A DNA stretch of 64,000 bases from an uncultured Flavobacterium sp. (lineage in GTDB: Bacteria; Bacteroidota; Bacteroidia; Flavobacteriales; Flavobacteriaceae). The stretch covers positions 26,220 through 90,219 of the forward strand of contig NZ_CAWURC010000027.1 in NCBI RefSeq assembly GCF_963925185.1, read 5' to 3'. The notes under the pieces are model-generated. The model was not told the origin of the DNA. It saw only the letters and a program-made list of their open reading frames with translations, and did not search any database. The position numbers were made by a program, and so were the translations under genes. This document shows positions 24,466 to 64,000 of the stretch, piece after piece (position 1 is the first letter of the stretch; each line of letters begins with the position of its first letter).

Positions 24466-24539
24466 TCTGATTTAAGATTTATTTAAACTTAAAAAAAGTA
24501 GTGACAACTTGGCTGTTGTCTCAAATTAAAAATGTGTTT

Positions 24540-24683
24540 TAGCCCTGATGGAAGCGGGAAGCTTTTTGCAGAAAATTGCTATTTTTTAAATAAAAAAGAG
24601 CGCCCAGCGGAAGCTCCTTTTTTATTTTTAGAAAAAAAAAGTGATTTTCAAAAAAACTTAAAACGTACAGCAGGATTAGCTTC
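24540..24683. repeat. Intergenic MITE/REP-like element (AGCCCTGATGGAAGCGG ... ACAGCAGGATTAGC)
   Basis: GC-rich termini in AT-rich intergenic DNA; 5' end resembles element at 42656 (agccccgattgcagtgg). Confidence 0.55.
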
Positions 24684-42568: not shown

Positions 42569-42656
42569 TTAAAAGTAAAAAGTCAGATTTTTAATGATTT
42601 AAAAAAATAAATTCTTTTTAGGGGTGCGTTTATTAGAAAATAAACGAAGTAAAACA

Positions 42657-42754
42657 GCCCCGATTGCAGTGGAAATCCTGTTGTTGCGATGCATCGATTA
42701 TTTCGTTCCTAGCAATGACCTGATCGCAATAACAGATTGTAACGAAAAGCGGGA
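42657..42754. repeat. Composite palindromic MITE/REP-like element
   Basis: gccccgattgcagtggaaatc-ctgttgttgcgat ... atcgcaataacagattgtaacgaaaagcggga; inner ttcgttcctagcaatgac matches 51843-51860 at 17/18. Confidence 0.7.
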
Positions 42755-42844
42755 CAACTGCTGATTAAAATGTAGAATACTTGTGCTACCAATTAAAAAC
42801 ACTTTATTTGTAACGAAATGTACTTTTTGCCCACCAATAGAATT

Positions 42845-53191: not shown

Positions 53192-54196
53192 ATGAAAGAA
53201 CAAGACATAAAAGCGATACAGCAGTTGTTATCAACTCCAAAAAAAATTGCCATTATCCCACATCGAAATCCTGATGGAGATGCTATGGGTTCTACCCTTG
53301 GGTTGTATCACTTTTTATTAAAAAATGGACATCAAGCTGTTGTGGTTTCTCCTAATGAATTTCCCGATTTTTTAGCTTGGATGCCTAGCTCGAACACCGT
53401 TAAAATATTTGAAAAAGATAAAATAAACTGCACCAAAATCCTCGAAGAAGCCGAACTCGTTTTTACCTTAGATTATAATGCTTTGCACCGTGTGGGCGAA
53501 ATGGAGAATATATTAAGCGAGCTAAAAGCTCCGTTTATTATGATTGACCACCATCAATCGCCGGATGATTATGCTGCATATACTTATTCGGATATTGCCT
53601 TTGGCTCTACTTGTGAAATGTTGTATAATTTTATTTGCTTTCTTGGAAAAAAATCCGACATTGACAAAACAATAGCAACCTGTATTTATACTGGAATTCT
53701 AACCGATTCAGGTTCATTTCGTTTTCCAAAAACAACAGGAACAACGCACAGAATTATAGCCGATTTGATTGATTTGGGTGTTGAAAATACCGAAATTCCA
53801 ACCTTAGTGTATGACAATAGTTCCTACGGAAGATTACAATTACTGGGAAGAGCGCTTCAAAATATGAAGGTTTTGGCAGCTCATAAAACAGCTTATACTA
53901 AGCTTACACAAGAAGAACTGAACACTTTTGACCATATTAAAGGGGACACTGAAGGAATTGTGAATTATGGATTAAGTATAAAAGGCATTGTTTTTACAGC
54001 CATTTTTATAGAAAATGCAGAAGAAAAAATTATCAAGATTTCGTTTCGTTCCCAAGGCAATTTTGATGTCAATCAATTTGCAAGAAATAATTTTAGTGGA
54101 GGTGGCCATCGCAATGCTGCCGGAGGAAAATCGGAATTATCGATGGAAGAAACTGTAAATAAATTCGAAGATCTGGTAAGCAAAATAGAAATATAA
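53192..54196 (+). CDS. nrnA: DHH family oligoribonuclease / pAp phosphatase
   Basis: HRNPDGDAMGS, IDHH, TDSGSF, ISFRS, GGGHRNAAG. Confidence 0.9.
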   Translation: MKEQDIKAIQQLLSTPKKIAIIPHRNPDGDAMGSTLGLYHFLLKNGHQAVVVSPNEFPDFLAWMPSSNTVKIFEKDKINCTKILEEAELVFTLDYNALHRVGEMENILSELKAPFIMIDHHQSPDDYAAYTYSDIAFGSTCEMLYNFICFLGKKSDIDKTIATCIYTGILTDSGSFRFPKTTGTTHRIIADLIDLGVENTEIPTLVYDNSSYGRLQLLGRALQNMKVLAAHKTAYTKLTQEELNTFDHIKGDTEGIVNYGLSIKGIVFTAIFIENAEEKIIKISFRSQGNFDVNQFARNNFSGGGHRNAAGGKSELSMEETVNKFEDLVSKIEI

Positions 54197-54202
54197 AATA
54201 GT

Positions 54203-54844
54203 ATGAAAAATAATAAATTATTGATAGTCGTACTTTCTTTCCTTTTTTTGATTTCAAGTTGCAAACAACATCAAGAAGCCAGAAGACCCATTTCACAGAC
54301 CTCGGGGAATTTTATGAAAAAATCTGCCGAAAGAAACAAGAAATTAATTGCTGGGGAGGAAGGGCAAATCGATTCGGTTATAAAAAGCAATCCTAAAGTA
54401 AAATATATTGCATCGACAAAAGGATATTGGTACACTTATATAATTCAAAATACATTAGACAGCCTGACTCCAAAAAAAGGAGACGTTGCCTTTTTTGACT
54501 ATGAAATAAAAGACATTAAAGGAAATGTAATCTATTCCGAATTCGAATTAAGGCCACAAACCTATTTAGTCGAGAAACAAAACATCATGACAGGGTTGCG
54601 AGAAGGTATAAAACTGATGCATAAAAATGAGAAAGTAATTTTCCTTTTTCCGTCGCATATTGCCTATGGCTATCATGGAGATGAAAAAAAAATAGGAACC
54701 AATCAACCCTTAATCTGTACAGTTAGACTTCATAATTTCATATCCGAAGAAGCATTTAAAAAAGAAATACAACTCAAAACTGGAACATCCCAAAAACAAC
54801 AATCAAATCTAGAAATCAAATCAATCGATTCTACAAAACAATAA
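54203..54844 (+). CDS. gldI: Gliding motility FKBP-type PPIase lipoprotein GldI
   Basis: Lipobox ISSC; EARRPIS, GLREGIKLMHKNE, FPSHIAYGYHGD. Confidence 0.92.
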   Translation: MKNNKLLIVVLSFLFLISSCKQHQEARRPISQTSGNFMKKSAERNKKLIAGEEGQIDSVIKSNPKVKYIASTKGYWYTYIIQNTLDSLTPKKGDVAFFDYEIKDIKGNVIYSEFELRPQTYLVEKQNIMTGLREGIKLMHKNEKVIFLFPSHIAYGYHGDEKKIGTNQPLICTVRLHNFISEEAFKKEIQLKTGTSQKQQSNLEIKSIDSTKQ

Positions 54845-54857
54845 AAAAAAATTAGAA

Positions 54858-55970
54858 ATGAAAAAAAGCATCTTATTTGCATTCCTCCTTTTCGCCTCAC
54901 TATATTCTTGTAAAGAGGAAAAAAACAATCTACCTGACGGATTATATGCTCAAATTGAAACTAACAAAGGAAACATAATCGTACAATTGGATTATGAAAA
55001 AGCACCTATTACTGTGGCAAACTTTGTCACTTTGGCCGAAGGAAAAAATGAATTTATCACCAATAAAAACCTTAAAAACAAACCTTTTTACGATGGATTG
55101 AAATTTCACAGAGTAATCAAAGATTTCATGATACAAACTGGCGACCCACTAGGAACAGGTTCAGGTGATACCGGTTGTAAATTTAAGGATGAGTTTACAA
55201 ATTTAAAATTTGACAAAGGTGGCGTTTTGGCTATGGCCAATAACGGTCCTGGAACCAATAGCAGCCAGTTTTTTATAACTCACGTTCAAACACAATGGCT
55301 CGAAGGCAAACACACCATTTTTGGCAATGTCGTTGAAAAAGGGATGGAAGTAGTCAACATTATTGAGCAAGGCGATTCTATGCTTAAAGTAACTATTATC
55401 AGGAACGGAAAGGCTGCAAAAAGGTTTAATGCTGTAAAAGTATTTCATGATTATTTTATTGTAGAATCGGATAATCAAAAGAAAAAACTGGAGGAAGAAG
55501 CCCTTTTAAATTTAAAATACAAAGATATATGCAATCAAAATGCGGACTATTTAACTTCTTTAAAATCAAAAGCAATAAAAACCCCAACTGGATTACAGTA
55601 CGTGATAACCAAAAAAAGTGGTGGTAAAAAACCCGCTAACAGAGCTAACATCTATATTCATTATGCCGGTTTTCTAGAAAACGGAACCCTATTTGATTCA
55701 AGTATTGAAGAAGTTTCAAAGACTTTTGGAAAATTCGACCCTAACAGGGCGGCACAAAAAGGATACCAACCCATTTCTTTTAAAGGAGGTCAAAAAGTGG
55801 GATTGATTCCTGGTTTTATCGAGGGAATCGAGAAATTATGTTTTGGCGACAAAGCCATTATCTTCATCCCTTCGAATCTTGGCTACGGCGAAGCGGGTGC
55901 TGGAAATGTAATTCCGCCTAATGCCGACATTATTTTTGAAATTGAATTATTGGAAAAAATGCCTCAATAA
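54858..55970 (+). CDS. Cyclophilin-FKBP dual-domain PPIase, lipoprotein
   Basis: Lipobox LYSC; FHRVIKDFMIQTGDP, SQFFITH, WLEGKHT; C-terminal HYAG..FDSS...IPSNLGYG. Confidence 0.92.
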   Translation: MKKSILFAFLLFASLYSCKEEKNNLPDGLYAQIETNKGNIIVQLDYEKAPITVANFVTLAEGKNEFITNKNLKNKPFYDGLKFHRVIKDFMIQTGDPLGTGSGDTGCKFKDEFTNLKFDKGGVLAMANNGPGTNSSQFFITHVQTQWLEGKHTIFGNVVEKGMEVVNIIEQGDSMLKVTIIRNGKAAKRFNAVKVFHDYFIVESDNQKKKLEEEALLNLKYKDICNQNADYLTSLKSKAIKTPTGLQYVITKKSGGKKPANRANIYIHYAGFLENGTLFDSSIEEVSKTFGKFDPNRAAQKGYQPISFKGGQKVGLIPGFIEGIEKLCFGDKAIIFIPSNLGYGEAGAGNVIPPNADIIFEIELLEKMPQ

Positions 55971-55983
55971 TTTATTAAACAGT

Positions 55984-56112
55984 AAACTACCTCGGGTCAG
56001 AGCCCAAGAGGCATTAACAAAATAACAGCCACAGATTCACAGATTTTAAAGAATCTTTTTTAATCTGTGAATCTGTGGCAAAAAAATCGAAGCAAAACTT
56101 CGAGGAATTAAA
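55984..56112. repeat. Composite REP-like cluster with central 18-bp perfect inverted repeat
   Basis: gccacagattcacagatt (56028-56045) / aatctgtgaatctgtggc (56062-56079), flanked by hairpins cctcgggtc..gcccaagagg and tcgaag-caaaa-cttcga. Confidence 0.75.
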
Positions 56113-56154
56113 CATAAAGAGATTAAAAAAAGTCATACCTTAAAATTACTCAAA

Positions 56155-57381
56155 ATGAAATCTAAAATCCTATTATTATTATTCTTGGGAATGTTGAACA
56201 TTCAGGCTCAAACAATCAAAAAACCAGTTGCAACAACAAAGAAACCTGTAACGACATCAAAAGCTACTTCTAAAGCTCCAGCTGTTGTCGAAGGAATTTT
56301 TGCAACTATTTTAACTAACAAAGGGACTATCGTTGTTCAATTAGAATATCAGAAAACGCCAATAACTGTTGCTAACTTTATCGCATTAGCAGAAGGAAAA
56401 AACACTTATGTAACTAATGAAAAATTAAAAGGAAAACCATTCTACGATGGACTCAAATTTCATAGAGTAATTGCTGATTTCATGATACAGGGTGGTGATC
56501 CATCAGGAAACGGTTCTGGCGGACCAGGTTATGCTTTTAAAGATGAATTTACAGATTTAAAATGTGACAAAGCCGGAATTTTGGCAATGGCAAATTCTGG
56601 CCCTGCTACGAATGGAAGTCAATTTTTTATCACCCATAAAGAAACCGCTTGGTTAAACGACAAACACACCGTTTTTGGTCACGTAACTCAAGGAATGGAT
56701 ATCGTAAACTTAATTGCACAAGATGATCTCATATTAAAAGTTACCATTACCCGAAAAGGGACTTTGGCTAAAGCCTTTGATGCTCCAAAAGTATTCTCAG
56801 ATTACTTTGTAAACAAAGCAGATGACGCCATAAAACAAAAATTAATTGCTGAAGAAAACCAGAAAAAACAAGATGAAATTGCCGCGGAAGCAAAAAGAGT
56901 ATATCAAGAAAAATATGCCAGTGTTATCGCTGAAAAGGCCGCTTATTTAGCCACTGCAAAATCGGAAGCCACTATAACTCCATCTGGATTAGCCTACAAA
57001 ATCACTGAAAAAGGAACAGGTATAAAACCTGCTGACGGCACAACTTTCAATTTTAACTATGCCGGTTATTTTGAAGATGGAAACTTATTTGATAGCAGTT
57101 ATGAAGGCGTTTGTAAAACTTACGGGAAACACGATGCTAATAGAGCTGCCCAAAACGGATACCGTGCTTTTCCTTTTCAAGCTGGAAAAAAAGACGGAAT
57201 GATTCCAGGTTTTCTTGAAGGATTAAGCTTATTATCGTTTGGAGACAAAGCCGTAATTTTCATCCCTTCTAATCTAGCTTATGGCGAAAGTGGTGCCGGT
57301 GGAGTGATTCCGCCAAACACAAACTTGGTTTTCGAACTAGAGATGATTGAAATACCACCTACAACCACGCAGGAAAAATAA
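56155..57381 (+). CDS. Cyclophilin-FKBP dual-domain PPIase (second paralog, cleavable signal peptide)
   Basis: NIQA-Q signal; FHRVIADFMIQGGDP, WLNDKHT; NYAGYF..FDSS...IPSNLAYG. Confidence 0.92.
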   Translation: MKSKILLLLFLGMLNIQAQTIKKPVATTKKPVTTSKATSKAPAVVEGIFATILTNKGTIVVQLEYQKTPITVANFIALAEGKNTYVTNEKLKGKPFYDGLKFHRVIADFMIQGGDPSGNGSGGPGYAFKDEFTDLKCDKAGILAMANSGPATNGSQFFITHKETAWLNDKHTVFGHVTQGMDIVNLIAQDDLILKVTITRKGTLAKAFDAPKVFSDYFVNKADDAIKQKLIAEENQKKQDEIAAEAKRVYQEKYASVIAEKAAYLATAKSEATITPSGLAYKITEKGTGIKPADGTTFNFNYAGYFEDGNLFDSSYEGVCKTYGKHDANRAAQNGYRAFPFQAGKKDGMIPGFLEGLSLLSFGDKAVIFIPSNLAYGESGAGGVIPPNTNLVFELEMIEIPPTTTQEK

Positions 57382-57394
57382 AACATACCAAGCT

Positions 57395-57433
57395 AAAAAA
57401 AGGGATTTACAAACAAAGTAAATCCCTTTTTTT
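57395..57433. terminator. Bidirectional intrinsic terminator
   Basis: Perfect 16-bp stem aaaaaaagggatttac / gtaaatcccttttttt. Confidence 0.88.
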
Positions 57434-57436
57434 ATA

Positions 57437-57877
57437 CTATTTATTTCCAAATTTCCAGTCAAATTCATCCTTAGCATTTATGATCGCGCCAATTTCGAAT
57501 TTAACAACCTCATCATATTCCGTTTGAAGGATGAACCAATTGTCCTCGTTGAAATAGTTTTCGAAAGTATCAAAATCTTCCCGAGTAAACTTAGTAATTC
57601 CTTTTGTAACCAATTCGTTTTTGACATCATTGATTTTTTTGCCAATGACCTTATGACCAAATAATTCTAAATCTGGACTCGAAGCTACGATGTAACCCAG
57701 TTTAAACTCTTCTTCCTGATAGAACGTCAAACGCATTTTTAGAGCATTGTAGGCAAAAATAATGTTGTCGTCTTCGTCCTTGTAATTCCGGTCTGGTTTA
57801 CCATAAATAGCGGCAACATCGTTCTGTTTCATTCCAAAAAGGAGTTTTTCGATCCCGTTTTTTAAGTTTATTTTCAT
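57437..57877 (-). CDS. Hypothetical protein
   Basis: 146 aa ORF with normal composition; LLFGMKQ.DV..IYGKPD motif; no function recognised. Confidence 0.75.
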   Translation of the reverse strand: MKINLKNGIEKLLFGMKQNDVAAIYGKPDRNYKDEDDNIIFAYNALKMRLTFYQEEEFKLGYIVASSPDLELFGHKVIGKKINDVKNELVTKGITKFTREDFDTFENYFNEDNWFILQTEYDEVVKFEIGAIINAKDEFDWKFGNK

Positions 57878-57890
57878 AAGTGTTTTGTTT

Positions 57891-57930
57891 CCCGCAAAGT
57901 TCGCAAAGTTTTTCGCAAAGTGGGTAAAGT
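57891..57930. repeat. CGCAAAG tandem repeat overlapping a promoter region
   Basis: cccgcaaagt tcgcaaagt ttttcgcaaagt gggtaaagt. Confidence 0.6.
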
Positions 57931-57968
57931 TTTTAATTTAAAAACAATTTGCTACTTTAGTACATTAA

Positions 57969-58166
57969 AATACTGATTATTGTGACATTTCAAAGAATCT
58001 AGTTGGATTACTTGTTTATTCTTCCAATGGAGTAGCAAATATAAATCTCCCACTTTTTTTACCAAAAAATACCTCATTTGAATTAATTGTAAATAAAAGA
58101 TTACAAGTAACACGAACCCTATATGATAATAAAGCATATCTAAATTATATTGAAATTGATAATTAA
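57969..58166 (+). pseudogene. Start-less 3' gene remnant ending just before an attC-like inverse core
   Basis: 65 open codons NTDYCDISK...YLNYIEIDN* with no ATG; followed by GCCCATAACAGCAGCT. Confidence 0.45.
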
Positions 58167-58169
58167 CCA

Positions 58170-58185
58170 GCCCATAACAGCAGCT
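58170..58185 (+). repeat. Truncated attC-like site (5' part only)
   Basis: gcccataac-agcagct 3 nt after a stop codon; same TAAC-AGC start as sites at 58495 and 59784. Confidence 0.5.
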
Positions 58186-58494
58186 ATTGTTTTAGAAGTG
58201 CCAAAAGCCAAAAAATCCTCCGTGAAGAATAGCGAACCCCTCTTGGCTTTTTTTATTTTAGCAATTACTTTATCATCAGTGCTTTGCATGGTTATATTGT
58301 TTAGTATTTGTCGCAAAAATAGTAAAAATTTGCGACAAAAAATAGCATTGAAAAGTTTTTCTGTTGGATGTTTTAATAGTTGTCTTTAAATCGTGCCAAT
58401 TATATTAAATATTTATTTTAGATATAGTACAATTTTATAAAGTCAATGAATACAATACTTTAAGTGCAAAATGGAACTGGCAGTAACAAAATGA

Positions 58495-58647
58495 GGATAA
58501 CAGCTGTTTGGCAAGATTCCGACTTTTGTAGTAAATTCACGTTTACATTTCGCAATAAATTTTATCCTTAGCAGAAAATATAAGGTTACGAAGTTCGCAA
58601 CCTCGCCAAGCGGCCAAACGCCCAACGCCGACCGTCAGCAACAATTA
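58495..58647 (+). repeat. attC-like site (hybrid) upstream of the propeller gene
   Basis: GGATAAC; arm 58502-58525 pairs with 58591-58614 (18/24); then caaacg, a foreign tail cccaacgccgacc and core GTCAGCA (58634-58640). Confidence 0.75.
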
Positions 58648-58660
58648 TAAAACCAACAAT

Positions 58661-59773
58661 ATGACAACCATTGAAAGTAAGAAAGTATTCATAGCAAGAA
58701 ATCTAATTTTGGTTCTTCTGACACTTCAATTCTCATCTTGCACGGGACAAGTGAAAGAAAAATCTGTTAATGATACAATAGAAAATGAAGTCAACACCCA
58801 ACCACTCATTTTAAATCAAAGCACGACCTTTCCGCAAATTCACACCAACTTAAATGGTATGGTAAGAGCGTTTGTAAGGACAATGTATCAAGACAAAAAA
58901 AGGAACTATTGGTTTGGAACAAATGGAGATGGAATTATACGCTATAATGGACAAATACTTGAAAGAATCACCATTGCTGGAATCAGTCCACATTTTAGGG
59001 TTTTAGAGATTGTAGAAGATAAAGTAGGTAATATTTGGTTTGGAACATCCGAAGGACTCATAAAATACGATGGTGTAAAATTTAAAACATTTTCATTCAA
59101 AGAAGGACTGCCAGGTGTGAATGCGGAAATTTGGGGTTTAACAATTGACAATAACGGACTTATTTGGATTGGGGCGACAGGAGGAGTTAGTCAATTTAAT
59201 GGTGAGACGTTTATACCTTTTTCTTTGCCAGCTTCAAAAGTCGAAAATGCAAAACCAATGCTATCTGACAAATTGGTTTTTAAAATCATAGAAGACAAGA
59301 ATGGAAATATGTGGTTTGCTACTGATGGGAATGGGATTTTTAAATATAAAAATGGAGAATTTATTCATTTAACAGCAAAAAGTGAACTTACCGATAATAA
59401 CGTTGCAGATATTTTAGAAGACAAACAAGGAAATATTTGGATTGGAACTTTTAATGGCGGTGTGAGCAAATTTGATGGTAAAACATACACCAACTTCACA
59501 AAGGATGGAATTATTGCAGGTGTAGAAACTTATAATTTTTATGAAGACAGCCTAGGGAATATTTGGTTTACGGCTGAAGGTTACGGTGTTTACCGATATG
59601 ATGGCAATAATTTCAAACAATTCACAACTGAAGATGGCTTGACCTCCAATGTTACACAAAGTCTTTTCGAAGATAACAAAGGACAAGTTTGGTTTGGAAG
59701 CTGGCAAGGATTAAGTATTTATGATGGAAAAATAATTATGAATGCTAAAGACAAAGAAACTTGGACGAACTAA
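58661..59773 (+). CDS. Beta-propeller lipoprotein (two-component regulator propeller repeats), cassette-like gene
   Basis: Lipobox FSSC; repeats DKKRNYWFGT, DKVGNIWFGT, DNNGLIWIGA, DKNGNMWFAT, DKQGNIWIGT, DSLGNIWFTA, DNKGQVWFGS; no kinase domain. Confidence 0.88.
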   Translation: MTTIESKKVFIARNLILVLLTLQFSSCTGQVKEKSVNDTIENEVNTQPLILNQSTTFPQIHTNLNGMVRAFVRTMYQDKKRNYWFGTNGDGIIRYNGQILERITIAGISPHFRVLEIVEDKVGNIWFGTSEGLIKYDGVKFKTFSFKEGLPGVNAEIWGLTIDNNGLIWIGATGGVSQFNGETFIPFSLPASKVENAKPMLSDKLVFKIIEDKNGNMWFATDGNGIFKYKNGEFIHLTAKSELTDNNVADILEDKQGNIWIGTFNGGVSKFDGKTYTNFTKDGIIAGVETYNFYEDSLGNIWFTAEGYGVYRYDGNNFKQFTTEDGLTSNVTQSLFEDNKGQVWFGSWQGLSIYDGKIIMNAKDKETWTN

Positions 59774-59776
59774 AAA

Positions 59777-59902
59777 TAACTGTTGCTAACAGCCGTTTTG
59801 CAAAAGCAGGGGTTTCGTGCTTCTATGAAAGTGAAGTGCTAAATTCAAGCTTTGTGCATCTAATGAAGTTTAGTGCTGAAAATCCCCGCCTTCGCCGAAC
59901 GT
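59777..59902 (+). repeat. attC-like site downstream of the propeller gene, 3' end degenerate
   Basis: Inverse core TGCTAAC (59784-59790); arm 59800-59815 pairs with 59880-59895 (12/16). Confidence 0.75.
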
Positions 59903-59954
59903 AGAAAAAACAGAAATGTCTTGAATATGAAAAATAATTTTTAATATTAATTCG

Positions 59955-60893
59955 ATGAAAAAAATAATAAGAATCTCATTATACAGTTTCCTAGGATTAG
60001 TGCTACTTGTATGCCTTTTGTTTGGATATAGTGACAAATCTGTAGCTGGTTTAAAATCAAAGTACGCACAAGCTCCTTCCGAATTTGTTAAAATAGACGG
60101 TATGAATGTTCATTTCCGTGACGAAGGGAATACACTTGATTCCTTGCCTATTGTGTTGCTCCACGGCACAGGATCGAGCTTGCACACATTTGATGAATGG
60201 ACAGTTATTTTAAAAAAAAATAGACGGATAGTCCGTATGGATTTGCCTGCGTTCGGATTAACAGGTCCATTCCCAGACAAAAATTATTCCATAGATCATT
60301 ATGTAAGTTTTATAGAAGATTTTTTAGCTTCGCAAGGAATTAATCGTTGCATACTTGGCGGAAATTCTTTAGGAGGACAAATTGCATGGAGGCTTACACT
60401 CAAAAGACCGGAAATAGTTGCTAAATTAATTTTGATTGACGCAGCAGGTTATCCTAAAGAATCTACAAGTGAACCCATTGCCTTTACTATTGCTAAAATT
60501 CCCGTATTGAATAAAATACTAACATTTATTACCCCCCGATTCGTAGCGAAAGCCAGCGTTAAAAATGTGTATGCAGAAGATGCTAAAATAACCGAAGAGC
60601 TTGTTGACCGATACTTTGATTTAGCATTGCGTTCAGGAAATCGGCAGGCATTGGTAGATAGAATGAAGGTGGAATATGGCTCAAACTACCTGGACCAAAT
60701 AAACCAAATACAACAACCAACATTGTTGTTATGGGGAGAAAAAGATTCACTAATTACAATTGCAAGCGCTTATCATTTCCATCGTGATTTACCGAATGAC
60801 ACCTTAGTAATTATAAAAAATTCCGGGCATGTACCTATGGAGGAAAGCCCAAAAGAAAGTTTGACCCCCGTTTTAAGTTTTATTCAGAAATAA
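59955..60893 (+). CDS. Alpha/beta fold hydrolase (membrane-anchored esterase/lipase-like)
   Basis: LLHGTGSS, DLPAFG, GNSLGG nucleophile elbow, WGEKD, SGHVPMEE. Confidence 0.92.
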   Translation: MKKIIRISLYSFLGLVLLVCLLFGYSDKSVAGLKSKYAQAPSEFVKIDGMNVHFRDEGNTLDSLPIVLLHGTGSSLHTFDEWTVILKKNRRIVRMDLPAFGLTGPFPDKNYSIDHYVSFIEDFLASQGINRCILGGNSLGGQIAWRLTLKRPEIVAKLILIDAAGYPKESTSEPIAFTIAKIPVLNKILTFITPRFVAKASVKNVYAEDAKITEELVDRYFDLALRSGNRQALVDRMKVEYGSNYLDQINQIQQPTLLLWGEKDSLITIASAYHFHRDLPNDTLVIIKNSGHVPMEESPKESLTPVLSFIQK

Positions 60894-60903
60894 GTATAAT
60901 GTA

Positions 60904-61094
60904 TATTTTTCAAATTATGCAGGATCAAAGGCAAACGTACTAAATTTTTCGCTTCTCTTTATGGTGAATTAAAACCAAAGAGAGTAGATGTATGTGTTTT
61001 ATCTCCAGGTATAACAAACACACCAATGGTAGTAGACAACGGAATGGATTGGAGTAAGACGCCAATGACAAGGCTTGAAAGTATAATGCTTTTG
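60904..61094 (+). pseudogene. Internal fragment of an SDR oxidoreductase with a 1-nt frameshift
   Basis: YFSNYAGSKANVLNFSL (YxxxK) then, after a frameshift near 60955, LYGELKPKRVDVCVLSPGITNTPMV. Confidence 0.8.
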
Positions 61095-61187
61095 AGCCAC
61101 TACTTTTTTATACAAAAATATGGGTAAAAATATTAATTAATATTCCCGTTTTTGTGTGCTTTTTTTTAAGTATGATTTTTACAGAGT

Positions 61188-61535
61188 CTAATCTGGGAAA
61201 ACAAATTCATTTTCGGAAAAATCCAAAACGTCTGATTTCGTAGCGGTACGAATGATTTCGTCGATACCTTTTTGAAGCAACAAGGACGTGGTGTATTTTC
61301 GGCTTGTAGCCACAAGAGTGTCATCAATCATCATTTTAAAAAAATATTTCCCGTTAGCAGCCCTTGATTTTACGTAAGTATAATTGTCTATGGTAGATTT
61401 CATCTCTTCGATGACGGTTGCGCAATCCATCTTTAGTTCAAAAGTCGTGCTTGTAAAAATAGTTTTTCCTTTTCTGGACGTGAATACAAATTTGTAGCGA
61501 TCTTCAAATCGTTTACTGATAACAAATGCTCCCAT
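61188..61535 (-). CDS. YegP / DUF1508 family protein
   Basis: Two DUF1508 half-repeats (YKFVF..RKGKTIFTS; YFFKM....LVATSRKY); likely start ATG 61535. Confidence 0.82.
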   Translation of the reverse strand: MGAFVISKRFEDRYKFVFTSRKGKTIFTSTTFELKMDCATVIEEMKSTIDNYTYVKSRAANGKYFFKMMIDDTLVATSRKYTTSLLLQKGIDEIIRTATKSDVLDFSENEFVFPD

Positions 61536-61621
61536 AAAATAGTGAATGTGCAATTAAAATAGCCTACTTATGGCAAGAATAATATTGTTTTGGTGTATTT
61601 TTAGTCTCTGATATAAAAACC

Positions 61622-61978
61622 CTATTCGTTCATTTCGTCGTAACGTTCGGGAATTTGCGGGTCATACAACGGACATTTGAATTCTTCTAAAGTATCTGCG
61701 AGCAAATTCATCGTTTTTCCTTCGGTTCCGTAGCAATCAATTTTGATACTTTGTGCAGTGGTTTTTACATGAAAAGCGCCTTTTCCTTTTGGGTTTTTCC
61801 AACTATTTTCATCTACTTTTTCCCAGTTCGAAAAAACGGAAGAAATACGATTCAGGATGACTGGAACCGGAAGCGTTTCGAGACCTTCGACCTCTTGTTG
61901 TTCAGCCAAAGCTTCATATACCAAATGATGATTTAAATAAATTCCGTCTTGATATTGCCAAAAAAGTAGTTCGTACAT
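61622..61978 (-). CDS. Hypothetical protein
   Basis: 118 aa from ATG 61978 (MYELLFWQY...CPLYDPQ..RYD); no function recognised. Confidence 0.7.
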   Translation of the reverse strand: MYELLFWQYQDGIYLNHHLVYEALAEQQEVEGLETLPVPVILNRISSVFSNWEKVDENSWKNPKGKGAFHVKTTAQSIKIDCYGTEGKTMNLLADTLEEFKCPLYDPQIPERYDEMNE

Positions 61979-61987
61979 GGATAAAAA

Positions 61988-62014
61988 TTTAAGGTTTAAG
62001 GGTTTAAGGTTTAA
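61988..62014. repeat. Heptamer tandem repeat (TTTAAGG x3.7), intergenic
   Basis: tttaagg tttaagg g tttaagg tttaa. Confidence 0.7.
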
Positions 62015-62061
62015 AAAAAATAACCAATCAACGATTAAACTTTTAAACAATTAAACCATTT

Positions 62062-63240
62062 TTAATATTCGAAAGTTCCGTATTCGCTGCTAATAGTCAA
62101 TTTTTTAACATCGGCTGCTTCCACTCTACCCACAATTTGTGCATCGACATCGAATGATTTTGAAATAGCAATAATTTCCTGAGCAATGGCTTCGGGAACA
62201 TAAATTTCCATGCGGTGACCGCAATTAAAAACTTGGTACATTTCCTTCCAATCCGTTTTTGATTGCTCTTGAATTAATTGAAACAAAGGTGGAACTGGAA
62301 ATAAATTGTCTTTTATTATATGCAGGTTTTGTATAAAATGCAAGATTTTAGTTTGCGCTCCACCGCTACAATGCACCATTCCGTGGATTTCGCTAGACGA
62401 ATATTGGTCTAAAATTTTCTTGATAATAGGCGCATACGTTCGCGTTGGCGAAAGCACTAATTGTCCGGCATCGATTGGTGAATTGTCGACAGCATCGGTC
62501 AATTTTACCTGACCCGAATAAATCAAAGCTGATGGAACAGCAGCATCGAAACTTTCTGGGTATTTGGTTGCCAAATACTTCCCAAAAACATCGTGTCGCG
62601 CAGATGTCAATCCGTTGCTTCCCATTCCGCCATTATAGCTTTTTTCGTAGCTGGCTTGACCAAAAGAAGCCAATCCAACAATTACGTCGCCCGCTTTAAT
62701 ATTGGCATTGTCAATTACTTTAGAACGCTTCATTCGGGCTGTAACAGTCGAATCTACGATGATGGTGCGAACAATATCGCCCACATCGGCAGTTTCGCCA
62801 CCGGTGGAATGAATAGTTACGCCAAAGGAATCTAATTCTTTGATCAATTCTTCGGTTCCGTTGATGATGGCCGAAATCACGTCGGCAGTTATTAAGTTTT
62901 TGTTTCTTCCAATAGTGGAGGAAAGTAGAATATTATCGGTAGCACCCACACACAATAAATCGTCGATATTCATGATTAAAGCGTCTTGCGCAATGCCTTT
63001 CCAAACCGAAATGTCACCCGTTTCTTTCCAATACATATACGCCAAAGACGATTTTGTTCCTGCACCATCAGCGTGCATAATGAGGCAATAATCGGCATCA
63101 TTGGTTAAGTAATCAGGGATAATTTTGCAAAAAGCTTGGGGGAACAATCCTTTGTCTATGTTTTTTATGGCGTTATGCACATCTTCTTTGGATGCCGAAA
63201 CACCGCGAAGTGCATACCGTTTGCTGGAATCTGAACTCAT
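62062..63240 (-). CDS. purM: Phosphoribosylformylglycinamidine cyclo-ligase (AIR synthase, Bacteroidota type)
   Basis: RGVSASKEDV, HADGAGTKS, GGETADV, SNGLTSARH, VFNCGHRM. Confidence 0.92.
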   Translation of the reverse strand: MSSDSSKRYALRGVSASKEDVHNAIKNIDKGLFPQAFCKIIPDYLTNDADYCLIMHADGAGTKSSLAYMYWKETGDISVWKGIAQDALIMNIDDLLCVGATDNILLSSTIGRNKNLITADVISAIINGTEELIKELDSFGVTIHSTGGETADVGDIVRTIIVDSTVTARMKRSKVIDNANIKAGDVIVGLASFGQASYEKSYNGGMGSNGLTSARHDVFGKYLATKYPESFDAAVPSALIYSGQVKLTDAVDNSPIDAGQLVLSPTRTYAPIIKKILDQYSSSEIHGMVHCSGGAQTKILHFIQNLHIIKDNLFPVPPLFQLIQEQSKTDWKEMYQVFNCGHRMEIYVPEAIAQEIIAISKSFDVDAQIVGRVEAADVKKLTISSEYGTFEY

Positions 63241-63355
63241 TTTATTTTGTGTAGTGTTGTTGGTTGTCCATCAAAGGAGGATGCCGCAAATATAAATATT
63301 TTTTTCGGGTATGCCTATTCCGTTTTGATAAGTGTTTTGAAAAATTATCAGACTA

Positions 63356-63387
63356 AAAATGCCTATCCAAAACCGGATAGGCATTTT
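63356..63387 (-). terminator. Intrinsic terminator after glutamine synthetase
   Basis: aaaatgcctatcc / ggataggcatttt 13-bp stem. Confidence 0.82.
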
Positions 63388-63408
63388 CAATAAACTCCTG
63401 CTTAAAAA

Positions 63409-64000
63409 TTATTTGGTAAGCAACAATTCTCTGTATTTAGCTAATGTCCAAGTTTCGTCATCAACTAATAACTCTAATTTGTCACAGTGATTCCTGATTT
63501 CTTCAAAATACGGTTTCACGTTGTTGCAATACGCTTCGGCCATAGCTTGAGCGTCTGTTAAATGGTTTGCTTTCTTTCTTTCGTTAGTCATCGCCTCTAC
63601 TTTAGAATTAATTCCTTCGATATGTCCAGAAATTTCTCGGATTAAGAGAATTTGTTCTTTGGCAAGAACTTTATATTCTTCTCCGAAAATTTCTTTCAAG
63701 CCTTTCACGTTTTCAATCAAAGTGTTTTGGTACCGAATCGCTGTTGGAATAACGTGATTTTGAGAAAGATCGCCTAGAACCCTACCTTCTATCTGAATTT
63801 TTTTGGTGTATTCTTCTAATTCAATTTCATAACGTGCTTCCACTTCTATGTGGTTCATAATTCCCATTTCTGAAAATAAATTCAACGCTAGTCTTGAAGC
63901 TCTAGCTTTCAAAGCTTCGGGAGTTGTTTTGAAATTGCTCAACCCTCTTTTGGCGGCTTCAATTTCCCAAGCTTCACTGTAACCGTCGCCTTCGAAAAGG
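63409..64000 (-). CDS. glnA: Glutamine synthetase type III, 3' part (runs off window end)
   Basis: FEGDGYSEAWEIEAAKRGL, EARYEIELEEY, CDKLELLVDD..W.L.KYRELL. Confidence 0.92.
   Translation of the reverse strand, partial: LFEGDGYSEAWEIEAAKRGLSNFKTTPEALKARASRLALNLFSEMGIMNHIEVEARYEIELEEYTKKIQIEGRVLGDLSQNHVIPTAIRYQNTLIENVKGLKEIFGEEYKVLAKEQILLIREISGHIEGINSKVEAMTNERKKANHLTDAQAMAEAYCNNVKPYFEEIRNHCDKLELLVDDETWTLAKYRELLLTK

Follow-up and report, generated by a model that had tools for sequence, protein, structure and literature searches.

A probable remnant of an integron-like cassette array that has lost its recombinase in an aquatic Flavobacterium

Introduction

Integrons are the textbook gene-capture device of bacteria. 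Among other described systems, CTX-type phages integrate a folded single strand by means of XerCD, pdif modules occur on Acinetobacter plasmids, and IS1111-attC elements and group IIC-attC introns target attC sites. Here we analyzed a locus of an uncultured Flavobacterium sp. in which a single beta-propeller gene lies between two attC-like sites. It is contained in a 64,000-nucleotide (nt) stretch of DNA (assembly GCF_963925185.1, contig NZ_CAWURC010000027.1, positions 26,220 to 90,219 of the forward strand), which is called the window throughout and is numbered from its first letter. Our results indicate that the segment 57,9xx-59,9xx of the window is very probably what remains, in eroded form, of a sedentary chromosomal integron-like cassette array carried by an aquatic Flavobacterium with a small genome, and this reading includes a model of the working system in relatives. 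Taken alone, the features of the window are near chance level, and their significance comes from comparison.

The arrays of the relatives resemble the superintegron of Vibrio cholerae (IntIA, attIA and attC sites of the V. cholerae repeat, or VCR, type) in that they are co-oriented and hold mostly single, short, promoter-less-looking genes, each with a structured imperfect palindrome that has YTAAC...GTTRRRY cores and a G|TT crossover, and with first bases that complement its own 5' core. They also share with it a preference for bottom-strand folding, sites that are homogeneous within a lineage, a recombinase gene and insertion site at the array head, and a cargo of mostly uncharacterized small proteins and toxin-like domains (RES, PIN). 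Unlike IntIA, however, the Flavobacterium recombinase lacks the IntI-specific insertion (residues 186-247 of VchIntIA), scores below the IntI cut-off and carries an N-terminal domain of ~70 amino acids (aa); its attI is located 3' of the co-oriented recombinase gene in the main subfamily; and its sites are long (about 135 or about 196 nt), with a ~16-bp outer box containing one conserved G.T pair and an asymmetric spacer, the R' side of which has 5 unpaired nt versus a single one on the R'' side. Integrase genes that are co-oriented with their cassettes and have attI immediately 3' of them have been described in the Treponema inverted-integrase group and in archaeal integrons (Ghaly et al. 2022, PMC9668308), but these integrases are reported to possess the IntI-specific domain (PMC9668308), which the Flavobacterium enzyme does not.

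With the Xer-dependent elements the arrays have in common an insertion-less Xer-like enzyme that would act on short sites, modules bounded by recombination sites and, in the CTX case, a folded single strand; they differ in having no dif-like 28-bp site and in possessing a dedicated accessory recombinase with an N-terminal domain, an attI and long single-gene arrays. As with IS1111-attC elements, a 1.7-kb insertion sequence is found exactly at the G|TT of the sites, but it encodes a DDE transposase and is neither an IS110/IS1111-type element nor a group IIC-attC intron. The window itself is comparable to a cluster of attC sites lacking integron-integrases (CALIN; Cury et al. 2016), since it has two attC-type sites 1.15 kb apart and no integrase nearby or in the genome. 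In contrast to CALIN in general, synteny with relatives whose recombinase is still present at this locus shows that it arose by integrase loss, both of its sites have defective 3' cores, and the sites appear to belong to a Bacteroidota family rather than to the classical attC family.

The IntI-specific insertion has been called essential for integron function (Smyshlyaev et al., PMC8138268), and the IntI-specific domain serves Ghaly et al. as the defining character even for archaeal integrons (PMC9668308). Both papers regard it as a requirement for the recombination of folded attC sites, and the published surveys present Bacteroidota as almost devoid of integrons. No array of at least three attC sites adjoining a recombinase without the IntI domain was seen by Cury et al. 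(2016, PMC4889954), the IntegronFinder 2.0 paper listed just one complete integron from Bacteroidetes, that of Salinibacter (PMC9024848), and a 2024 preprint placed Bacteroidota among the clades 'previously found without any integrons'. A literature search that covered few subscription journals found no description of the Flavobacterium arrays. These arrays appear to work like a sedentary chromosomal integron but fall outside the definition by the IntI-specific domain, and the remnant in the window fits the definition of CALIN.

The attC-like sites and their family

The propeller gene and its two flanking sites occupy the following positions.

58486..58640, plus strand: attC-like site 1 (covariance model match 58492-58626, minus strand)
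58635..59901, plus strand: propeller cassette, 1267 nt, starting with the T that follows the crossover G (58634) and ending with the site 2 G
58661..59773, plus strand: cassette gene, encoding a 370-aa beta-propeller with Reg_prop repeats (Pfam PF07494, 2.8e-33)
59775..59907, plus strand: attC-like site 2, terminal (covariance model match 59781-59915, minus strand)

The gene is bounded by GTCAGCAACAATTA at 58634-58647, 13 nt 5' of the ATG at 58661, and by TAACTGTTGCTAAC at 59777-59790, 3 nt 3' of the stop codon (59771-59773), and the two sequences are reverse-complementary at 12 of 14 positions. An initial annotation of this DNA had given these coordinates and sequences exactly, and had recognized that the TAAC cores open imperfect hairpins. 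We found that both hairpins are 125-140 nt long and fold better on the bottom strand, with predicted single-stranded DNA folding energies of -18.3 and -17.3 kcal/mol for the bottom strand of sites 1 and 2, respectively, versus -15.8 and -14.0 for the top strand; the three bottom-strand G.T pairs that the annotation counted in site 2 are located in its 12-bp inner stem. The interiors of the two sites, which it had described as unrelated, each proved to be a member of a sequence subfamily with 72-87% conservation within the genus: blastn comparison with 40 relatives found both site types many times in genomes of the same genus, at 72-87% identity and often clustered.

We aligned 26 copies of the site from other genomes, with the window excluded, and built a covariance model (R1) on this alignment. 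R1 matched the bottom strand of the window at 58492-58626 (108.9 bits, E 7.5e-25) and 59781-59915 (53.5 bits, E 4.8e-11), while on the top strand site 1 reached only 24 bits and site 2 only 6.9 bits (E about 2). RNAalifold predicted a 19-bp bottom-strand stem with compensatory changes in 16 of its 19 pairs. When the stem and four outer-box pairs were considered together, 94.5% of cells were paired, compared to 77% with shuffled partners and 33-47% with slid partners, and none of 500 shuffles reached any of the pairing measures. One pair was G.U on the bottom strand in 25 of the 26 sites and another in 12, and these are A.C mismatches on the top strand.

The consensus of the top strand, read 5' to 3', consists of variable bases, YTAAC, directly the 5' arm (AGCNGTTT...), a variable loop and the 3' arm, followed by an unpaired GGAAC or CAAAC and then G|TTRRRY; the core consensus of the family is nnYTAAC ... 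AACGTTRRnn. Thus, the two peculiarities remarked on at the outset, arms that start directly after TAAC and an unpaired CAAAC before the crossover G, are real features of the family. The variable loop accounts for two length classes, of about 135 and about 196 nt, and the internal loop is asymmetric (5 nt versus 1 nt). The family displays the traits by which attC is recognized, i.e., the core motifs, complementarity of each cassette to its own site (see below) and a structured imperfect palindrome on the bottom strand, although the geometry of the predicted fold is unlike that of the classical extrahelical bases. Together, the covariance, the strand bias and the own-site complementarity bear out the proposal of an integron-type cassette with attC-like bottom-strand sites. 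No family covered the sites in an Rfam scan of the region, and no dif-like site of ~28 bp (two 11-bp arms and a 6-bp spacer) was found in the 135-nt hairpin sites.

Hairpins that are intergenic, palindromic and highly repeated (up to 60 copies or more per genome), with a single-sequence folding energy that barely beats that of shuffled sequence, might also be REP/MITE-like repeats (repetitive extragenic palindromes or miniature inverted-repeat transposable elements) or transcription terminators instead of recombination sites. We regard this explanation as extremely unlikely. Complementarity of a gene's 5' end to the site at its own 3' end is not expected of MITEs or terminators, the strand favored by the G.T bias is antisense to the genes, contrary to what an mRNA terminator would require, the copies share one orientation and cluster next to a single recombinase family that has a defined insertion point, and an insertion sequence targets exactly the G|TT junction.

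Both sites in the window have defective 3' cores. In site 1, the 5' core and extension end in GGATAAC (58495-58501) and are followed by the covarying stem, while the 3' core is damaged by a 14-nt insert, CCCAACGCCGACCG, within 58619-34 and reads GTCAGCA (58634-40), not GTTAGCA. In site 2, the 5' core TGCTAAC is located at 59784-90 and the 3' junction reads ...GAACG|TAGAAA, i.e., GTA and not GTT.

The insert region of site 1 (58619-58634) resembles an imperfect triplication of CCAAACG (CCAAACG-CCCAACG-CCGACCG). Replication slippage and the footprint of an excised element with an end that starts in TCAG are candidates for its origin.

Cassette boundaries

To define the cassette boundary, we examined 33 consecutive site pairs at seven loci of related genomes, taking the first 13 bases downstream of the GTT that comes after site n-1 and comparing them with the reverse complement of the sequence that precedes the AAC of site n. 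Cassette starts matched the 5' extension of their own site at a mean of 9.76 of 13 positions (33 cassettes), versus 4.9 of 13 in controls that used the same site's own downstream bases or random pairs (Mann-Whitney p about 1e-11 and 2e-19). Therefore, the 5' end of each gene complements the site at its own 3' end. At position 11, one side nearly always had A and the other side G, which gives a G.T pair on the bottom strand. This own-site complementarity is the signature of an integron cassette and fits a circular form that would rebuild the site at G|TT. In the window, the cassette start (G)TCAGCAACAATTATA faces GTTAGCAACAGTTATT, the reverse complement of 59775-59790, and complementarity over the full box (GTCAGCAACAATTATA versus GTTAGCAACAGTTATT) is 13 of 16; the three mismatches are the family-wide A/G wobble position, the GTT-to-GTC change and the outermost position, the first two of which account for both mismatches in the 12-of-14 comparison of the initial annotation.

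In two cassettes of a single genome, a 1.7-kb insertion sequence occupies precisely the junction of ...AAACG with TTATG..., which provides independent support for the boundary.

The same propeller cassette was also found in F. caseinilyticum (genome G013; G, C and L numbers are our handles for genomes, contigs and loci). Its contig C11 carries a propeller gene with 81% aa identity (L006 1149-2249) in a cassette at L006 1128-2262 with the same matching core pair and an intact upstream junction, ...AAACG|TTAGCAACAATTATA, i.e., ...GGCTAAACG|TTAGCAACAATTATAAAACC... The neighbors differ, as does the upstream site, indicating that the cassette has moved between contexts. Downstream, identity extends through TAACAGCCGTTT and is followed by unrelated site interiors (the first 12 nt are common to window 59787-59798 and L006 2268-2279); site interiors thus seem to be exchanged independently of the gene. 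The remaining cassette cargo of F. caseinilyticum encodes mostly proteins without Pfam matches together with RES, PIN_8, DUF4145 and DUF4279 domains, and is typical of chromosomal integrons.

As a side observation, several arrays from more than one species have the 1.7-kb insertion sequence at the G|TT crossover. This element, which starts with TCAGGCTGTGAA and finishes with TTCACAGTCTGA, has a gene for a DDE transposase of 514 aa (DDE_Tnp_1_6, DUF772) and is analogous to the IS1111-attC elements. A loose end was seen at window position 58614 in sequencing run X10. The copies are located as follows.

L031 16257-17972 (G010): insertion sequence copy
L033 15244-16959 (G010): insertion sequence copy
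L006, after 2397: insertion sequence copy
L035, after 14926: insertion sequence copy

Recombinase and attI in relatives

In relatives, the sites recur in arrays that bound single variable genes, and a tyrosine recombinase gene consistently adjoins these arrays. Both had been suggested as checks on the cassette proposal, as had a propeller homologue with a matching core pair, which F. caseinilyticum provides; a fourth feature to be looked for, the IntI insertion in the adjoining recombinase, was missing. The recombinase open reading frames (ORFs) are 345-365 aa long, with Phage_int_SAM_4 and Phage_integrase domains, and 18 diverse members all share the catalytic residues R, K, H, R, H and Y. 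The best curated match was the XerA-type model NF040815 (216-221 bits, cut-off 220). The IntI model TIGR02249 gave split matches of 192-204 bits (cut-off 265) that skipped model positions 178-238, and in alignment with VchIntIA (PDB 2a3v) residues 186-247 faced only 19 residues, such that the region of the IntI-specific insertion is missing.

An AlphaFold2 model (mean predicted local distance difference test, pLDDT, of 84) showed a Xer/IntI-like core, with XerA (5hxy) and IntI (2a3v) as the best PDB matches. The extra N-terminal domain, about 70 aa in size, was predicted as a beta-beta-alpha-beta-beta-alpha fold at residues 1-56 (pLDDT 81-91). A fold search confirmed the XerA/IntI-like core and gave no match that identified the N-terminal domain. 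The frameshifted recombinase of L042 (Flavobacterium UBA7663) was left out of structure prediction. The recombinase belongs to the Xer/IntI clade, and public annotation calls its members 'tyrosine-type recombinase/integrase' or 'XerD' only.

When the boundary rule was applied to five genomes (G013, G011, Flavobacterium sp. UBA7663, Aquiflexum and MAG39, a metagenome-assembled genome, or MAG, of a Bacteroidetes organism), the first cassette began 101-105 nt after the recombinase stop codon in each, and this fixed distance therefore places attI 101-105 nt past the recombinase stop. The attI junction was ...TATATACAA|GTT in the three Flavobacterium genomes. Thus, attI of the relatives is at the head of the array and 3' of the recombinase gene, whereas the classical attI is 5' of a divergent gene. 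Just downstream of homologous recombinases, R1 matches were also found across other Bacteroidota families, for example in Aquiflexum, Winogradskyella, Alkalitalea, Pontibacter and Bacteroidales MAGs.

Across 121 sampled Flavobacterium genomes, 98 had sites and 73 had the recombinase, which is accessory (absent in 48). Sites and recombinase co-occurred (odds ratio 8.2, p 4e-5), the median number of sites was 10 with the recombinase versus 1 without it, and 41 of 50 genomes with at least 10 sites encoded it. One genome, G010, has 60 co-oriented sites of both length classes adjoining a divergently oriented recombinase gene of a second subfamily (G010:C1:890001-1106779), in clusters at 890-918, 953-1014 and 1067-1107 kb with gaps of 35 kb and 53 kb that had no matches.

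We considered that the locus might be an ordinary CALIN-type integron remnant, in which a classical IntI, encoded by other strains or replicons, acts on canonical attC sites and the insertion-less recombinase is a bystander. The cores do match the classical consensus (YTAAC ... GTTRRRY) with crossover at G|TT, and Bacteroidota appear in published lists of phyla with integron elements (PMC8618304; PMC9668308). However, no TIGR02249 match over the cut-off was found in the source genome or in 12 array-bearing relatives, nor in any of the 121 genus genomes, 98 of which have sites, in a scan that included no positive-control genome. An IntI with the additional domain near patch III was thus seen neither in the genome of the window nor in the relatives. 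In addition, the first cassette is fixed at 101-105 nt past the stop of the insertion-less recombinase in five genomes, the presence of this recombinase tracks site number, and standard tools apparently do not report these arrays as complete integrons (surveys in PMC4889954 and PMC9024848). We therefore judge this explanation very unlikely.

In many draft genomes, the recombinase gene is often 100-260 nt from a contig end (e.g., G019:C15:110-1150, G130:C13:265-1299, G002:C166:14-1063), and most public contigs encoding it are 1-5 kb long. From this it seems that assemblies are interrupted at the repeated sites, a tendency that would help to hide the arrays.

Loss of the platform at the window locus

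Around the two sites, the window contains the following elements of the locus.

57437..57877, minus strand: 146-aa gene of the conserved left flank (81.5% aa identity to both L032 6056-6493 and L035 5376-5813)
57888..57933, no strand assigned: conserved intergenic TTCGCAAAGT-repeat motif (blastn, window 57900-57944 = G006:C3:384629-384673)
57969..58166, plus strand: start-less 65-codon ORF remnant ending in TAA (from translation)
58167..58186, plus strand: clipped site attC0, CCAGCCCATAAC plus the first 8 nt of the 5' arm, 20 nt left
58187..58496, no strand assigned: strain-specific 310-nt filler, the last 73 nt of which match a cassette 3' end in G009 (blastn, L029)
61622..63240, minus strand: conserved right flank, a 142-aa gene and an AIR-synthase-like gene (assigned by aa identity to G006 and G013)

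Both flanks (53192-57877 and 61622-63240) are syntenic with the locus that carries the recombinase, attI and array in G006 and G013. On the left, the gene order of 53192-57381, upstream of the 146-aa gene, is kept in the L032 and L035 homologues, and the 146-aa gene lies directly 5' of the recombinase gene in G006 and G013. The TTCGCAAAGT-repeat motif is located ~250 nt upstream of the recombinase start codon in G006 and thus marks the left edge of the deleted platform in the window. On the right, the two genes have 78% and 94-95% aa identity to G006:C3 (L117) and G013:C6 (L118), where they sit beyond the arrays. The interval between the conserved flanks is 3.7 kb in the window versus about 15 kb in G006. 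The locus was contiguous in an independent 80-kb metagenome scaffold.

No member of the recombinase family, intact or as a pseudogene, was found in the source genome (2.25 Mb, 34% G+C, 51 contigs, 99.8% complete), which has only two roughly 300-aa Xer-like genes (29% identity). Alignment with four attI regions revealed no attI-like sequence in the window. What is left consists of two model matches 1.15 kb apart and one clipped site, and the start-less ORF at 57969-58166, which had no homologues among the compared loci, probably represents the 3' part of a cassette gene that was truncated when the recombinase gene and attI were deleted. A scan of the source genome for further sites found these two only, near-exact pattern matches elsewhere being at chance level and inside genes. 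The initial annotation had inferred a recombinase encoded elsewhere, but the array-linked family is absent from this genome, and synteny indicates that the platform itself was here and lost its recombinase gene and attI. The initial reading was largely right, but the locus in the source genome is a platform fossil, not a working system with a distant recombinase, and most of its interest lies in the family that it reveals.

Metagenome contigs of the same species from several studies had identical flanks, and none carried the recombinase gene at this locus. In most of them, 58187-58496 is replaced (L120 5067-5836) by the rest of attC0, which is complete there (L120 5049-5183, 100.9 bits), and a cassette for a 131-aa membrane protein. 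The filler had a depth of 0.1-0.7 in runs X6, X8 and X10 versus 6-58 for the flanks, and the short form was supported by a 370-nt contig at depth 53 in run X1. The damaged site 1 and site 2 are fixed in all metagenome copies.

Since the cassette content of the locus differs between co-occurring strains of the species, the cassette might still be mobile here, through the action in trans of the genome's pair of housekeeping Xer-like enzymes or of a recombinase brought in on incoming DNA. The precedent of XerCD acting on the folded single-stranded CTX phage site and the many genomes that keep multiple sites without the dedicated recombinase are in line with this idea. Nevertheless, the polymorphism between strains does not involve G|TT junctions, the 14 extra nt and GTC of site 1 and the GTA of site 2 are fixed in all metagenome copies, and a dif-like motif is absent, all of which make continued mobility very unlikely.

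Discussion

We favor a model in which a dedicated tyrosine recombinase of the relatives would insert circular single-gene cassettes at attI (...TATATACAA|GTT), 101-105 nt past its own stop codon. Each cassette would start with TTRRRY and end in a ~135-nt attC-like site, the bottom strand of which is predicted to fold into three parts: a ~16-bp outer box, made up of the YTAAC/GTTRR core plus extension with one conserved G.T pair, an asymmetric loop (5 versus 1 nt) and a 19-bp covarying stem. Strand exchange would take place at G|TT. Integrons (MacDonald et al. 2006; Cury et al. 2016) suggest, by analogy, that the enzyme would bind the folded bottom strand and exchange one strand at AA|C, and that replication would resolve the product. 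In the source genome, the recombinase gene, attI and the array head have been deleted, and the remainder comprises the start-less ORF end, the clipped site, the 310-nt filler, site 1, the propeller cassette and the terminal site 2. While the site family with its structure and strand bias, the cassette boundaries, the linkage of array, recombinase and attI, and the synteny with its loss are seen in silico, we infer the single-strand recombination chemistry, the protein that catalyzes it and the present immobility. The propeller cassette is most likely immobile, and its gene now an ordinary fixed accessory gene, because the genome lacks the enzyme, the core of site 1 is 14 nt off the stem and carries GTC, and site 2 carries GTA.

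Taken alone, the window gives weak evidence: its 2.6-kb region around the gene has 74 inverted pairs, of which the repeat that flanks the gene is one (I6) and at least five are longer, and single-sequence folding z-scores are weak (-0.6 to -2.05). Several observations weigh against this model. The finding that no genome of the genus had a canonical IntI comes from the scan mentioned above, which had no positive control. Recombinases of the G010-type subfamily are divergently oriented and 3.7 kb from the first site, and many genomes have several sites and no recombinase (e.g., G023, with 16 sites), so that action in trans, or by another enzyme, is conceivable. The propeller cassette has an identical 5' core and a different site interior in the two species, indicating that a process beyond classical attC x attC exchange also reshapes the arrays. 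The sole polymorphism within the species has its breakpoints near the 5' TAAC of sites and not at G|TT, which shows that non-G|TT processes also act on the arrays. Finally, we saw no recombination events, i.e., neither circles nor empty and filled G|TT sites within one species.

On a broader scale, Bacteroidota might have their own, unrecognized class of integrons, with an insertion-less recombinase of the Xer/IntI clade that has a novel N-terminal domain, an attI past its own stop codon, folded 135-nt sites, arrays of at least 60 sites and decay to remnants. Such a class would span Flavobacterium and at least Cyclobacteriaceae, Hymenobacteraceae-like, Marinilabiliales and Bacteroidales lineages. 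We advance this combined proposal tentatively and rate its chance at slightly below even. If the Flavobacterium arrays are what they seem, cassette capture on folded single-strand sites would need no IntI-specific domain, which bears on the origin of integrons from Xer-like ancestors, and the integron surveys consulted would have left unreported a large reservoir of shuffled accessory genes carried by abundant Bacteroidota of water and soil. Three features, namely an outer box of 16 bp, a fixed wobble pair and an additional N-terminal domain, offer concrete handles for biochemistry. For the window, the odd gene context is explained as a decayed platform, a clean case of integrase loss by synteny.

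Neighboring features

The propeller protein has an N-terminus that resembles a lipoprotein signal (…LQFSSC), and its gene contains internal repeats of 126 nt. Between site 2 and the right flank are two accessory genes with no site 3' of them, one of which is the following.

59955..60893, plus strand: alpha/beta-hydrolase gene in the variable region 3' of the last site (Pfam PF00561)

The hydrolase had no homologues at E<=1e-20 in six relatives. A full-model scan of 57300-64000 with filters off found no third attC-like site, and because no such site follows the hydrolase, it is not demonstrably a cassette; it is an accessory gene.

Elsewhere in the window, two Flavo-1 RNA motifs (Rfam RF01705) are located at 24537-24681 and 42652-42760, with 47 and 65 bits, respectively (gathering score 42). 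They differ from the attC-like sites in sequence and structure and are unrelated to them.

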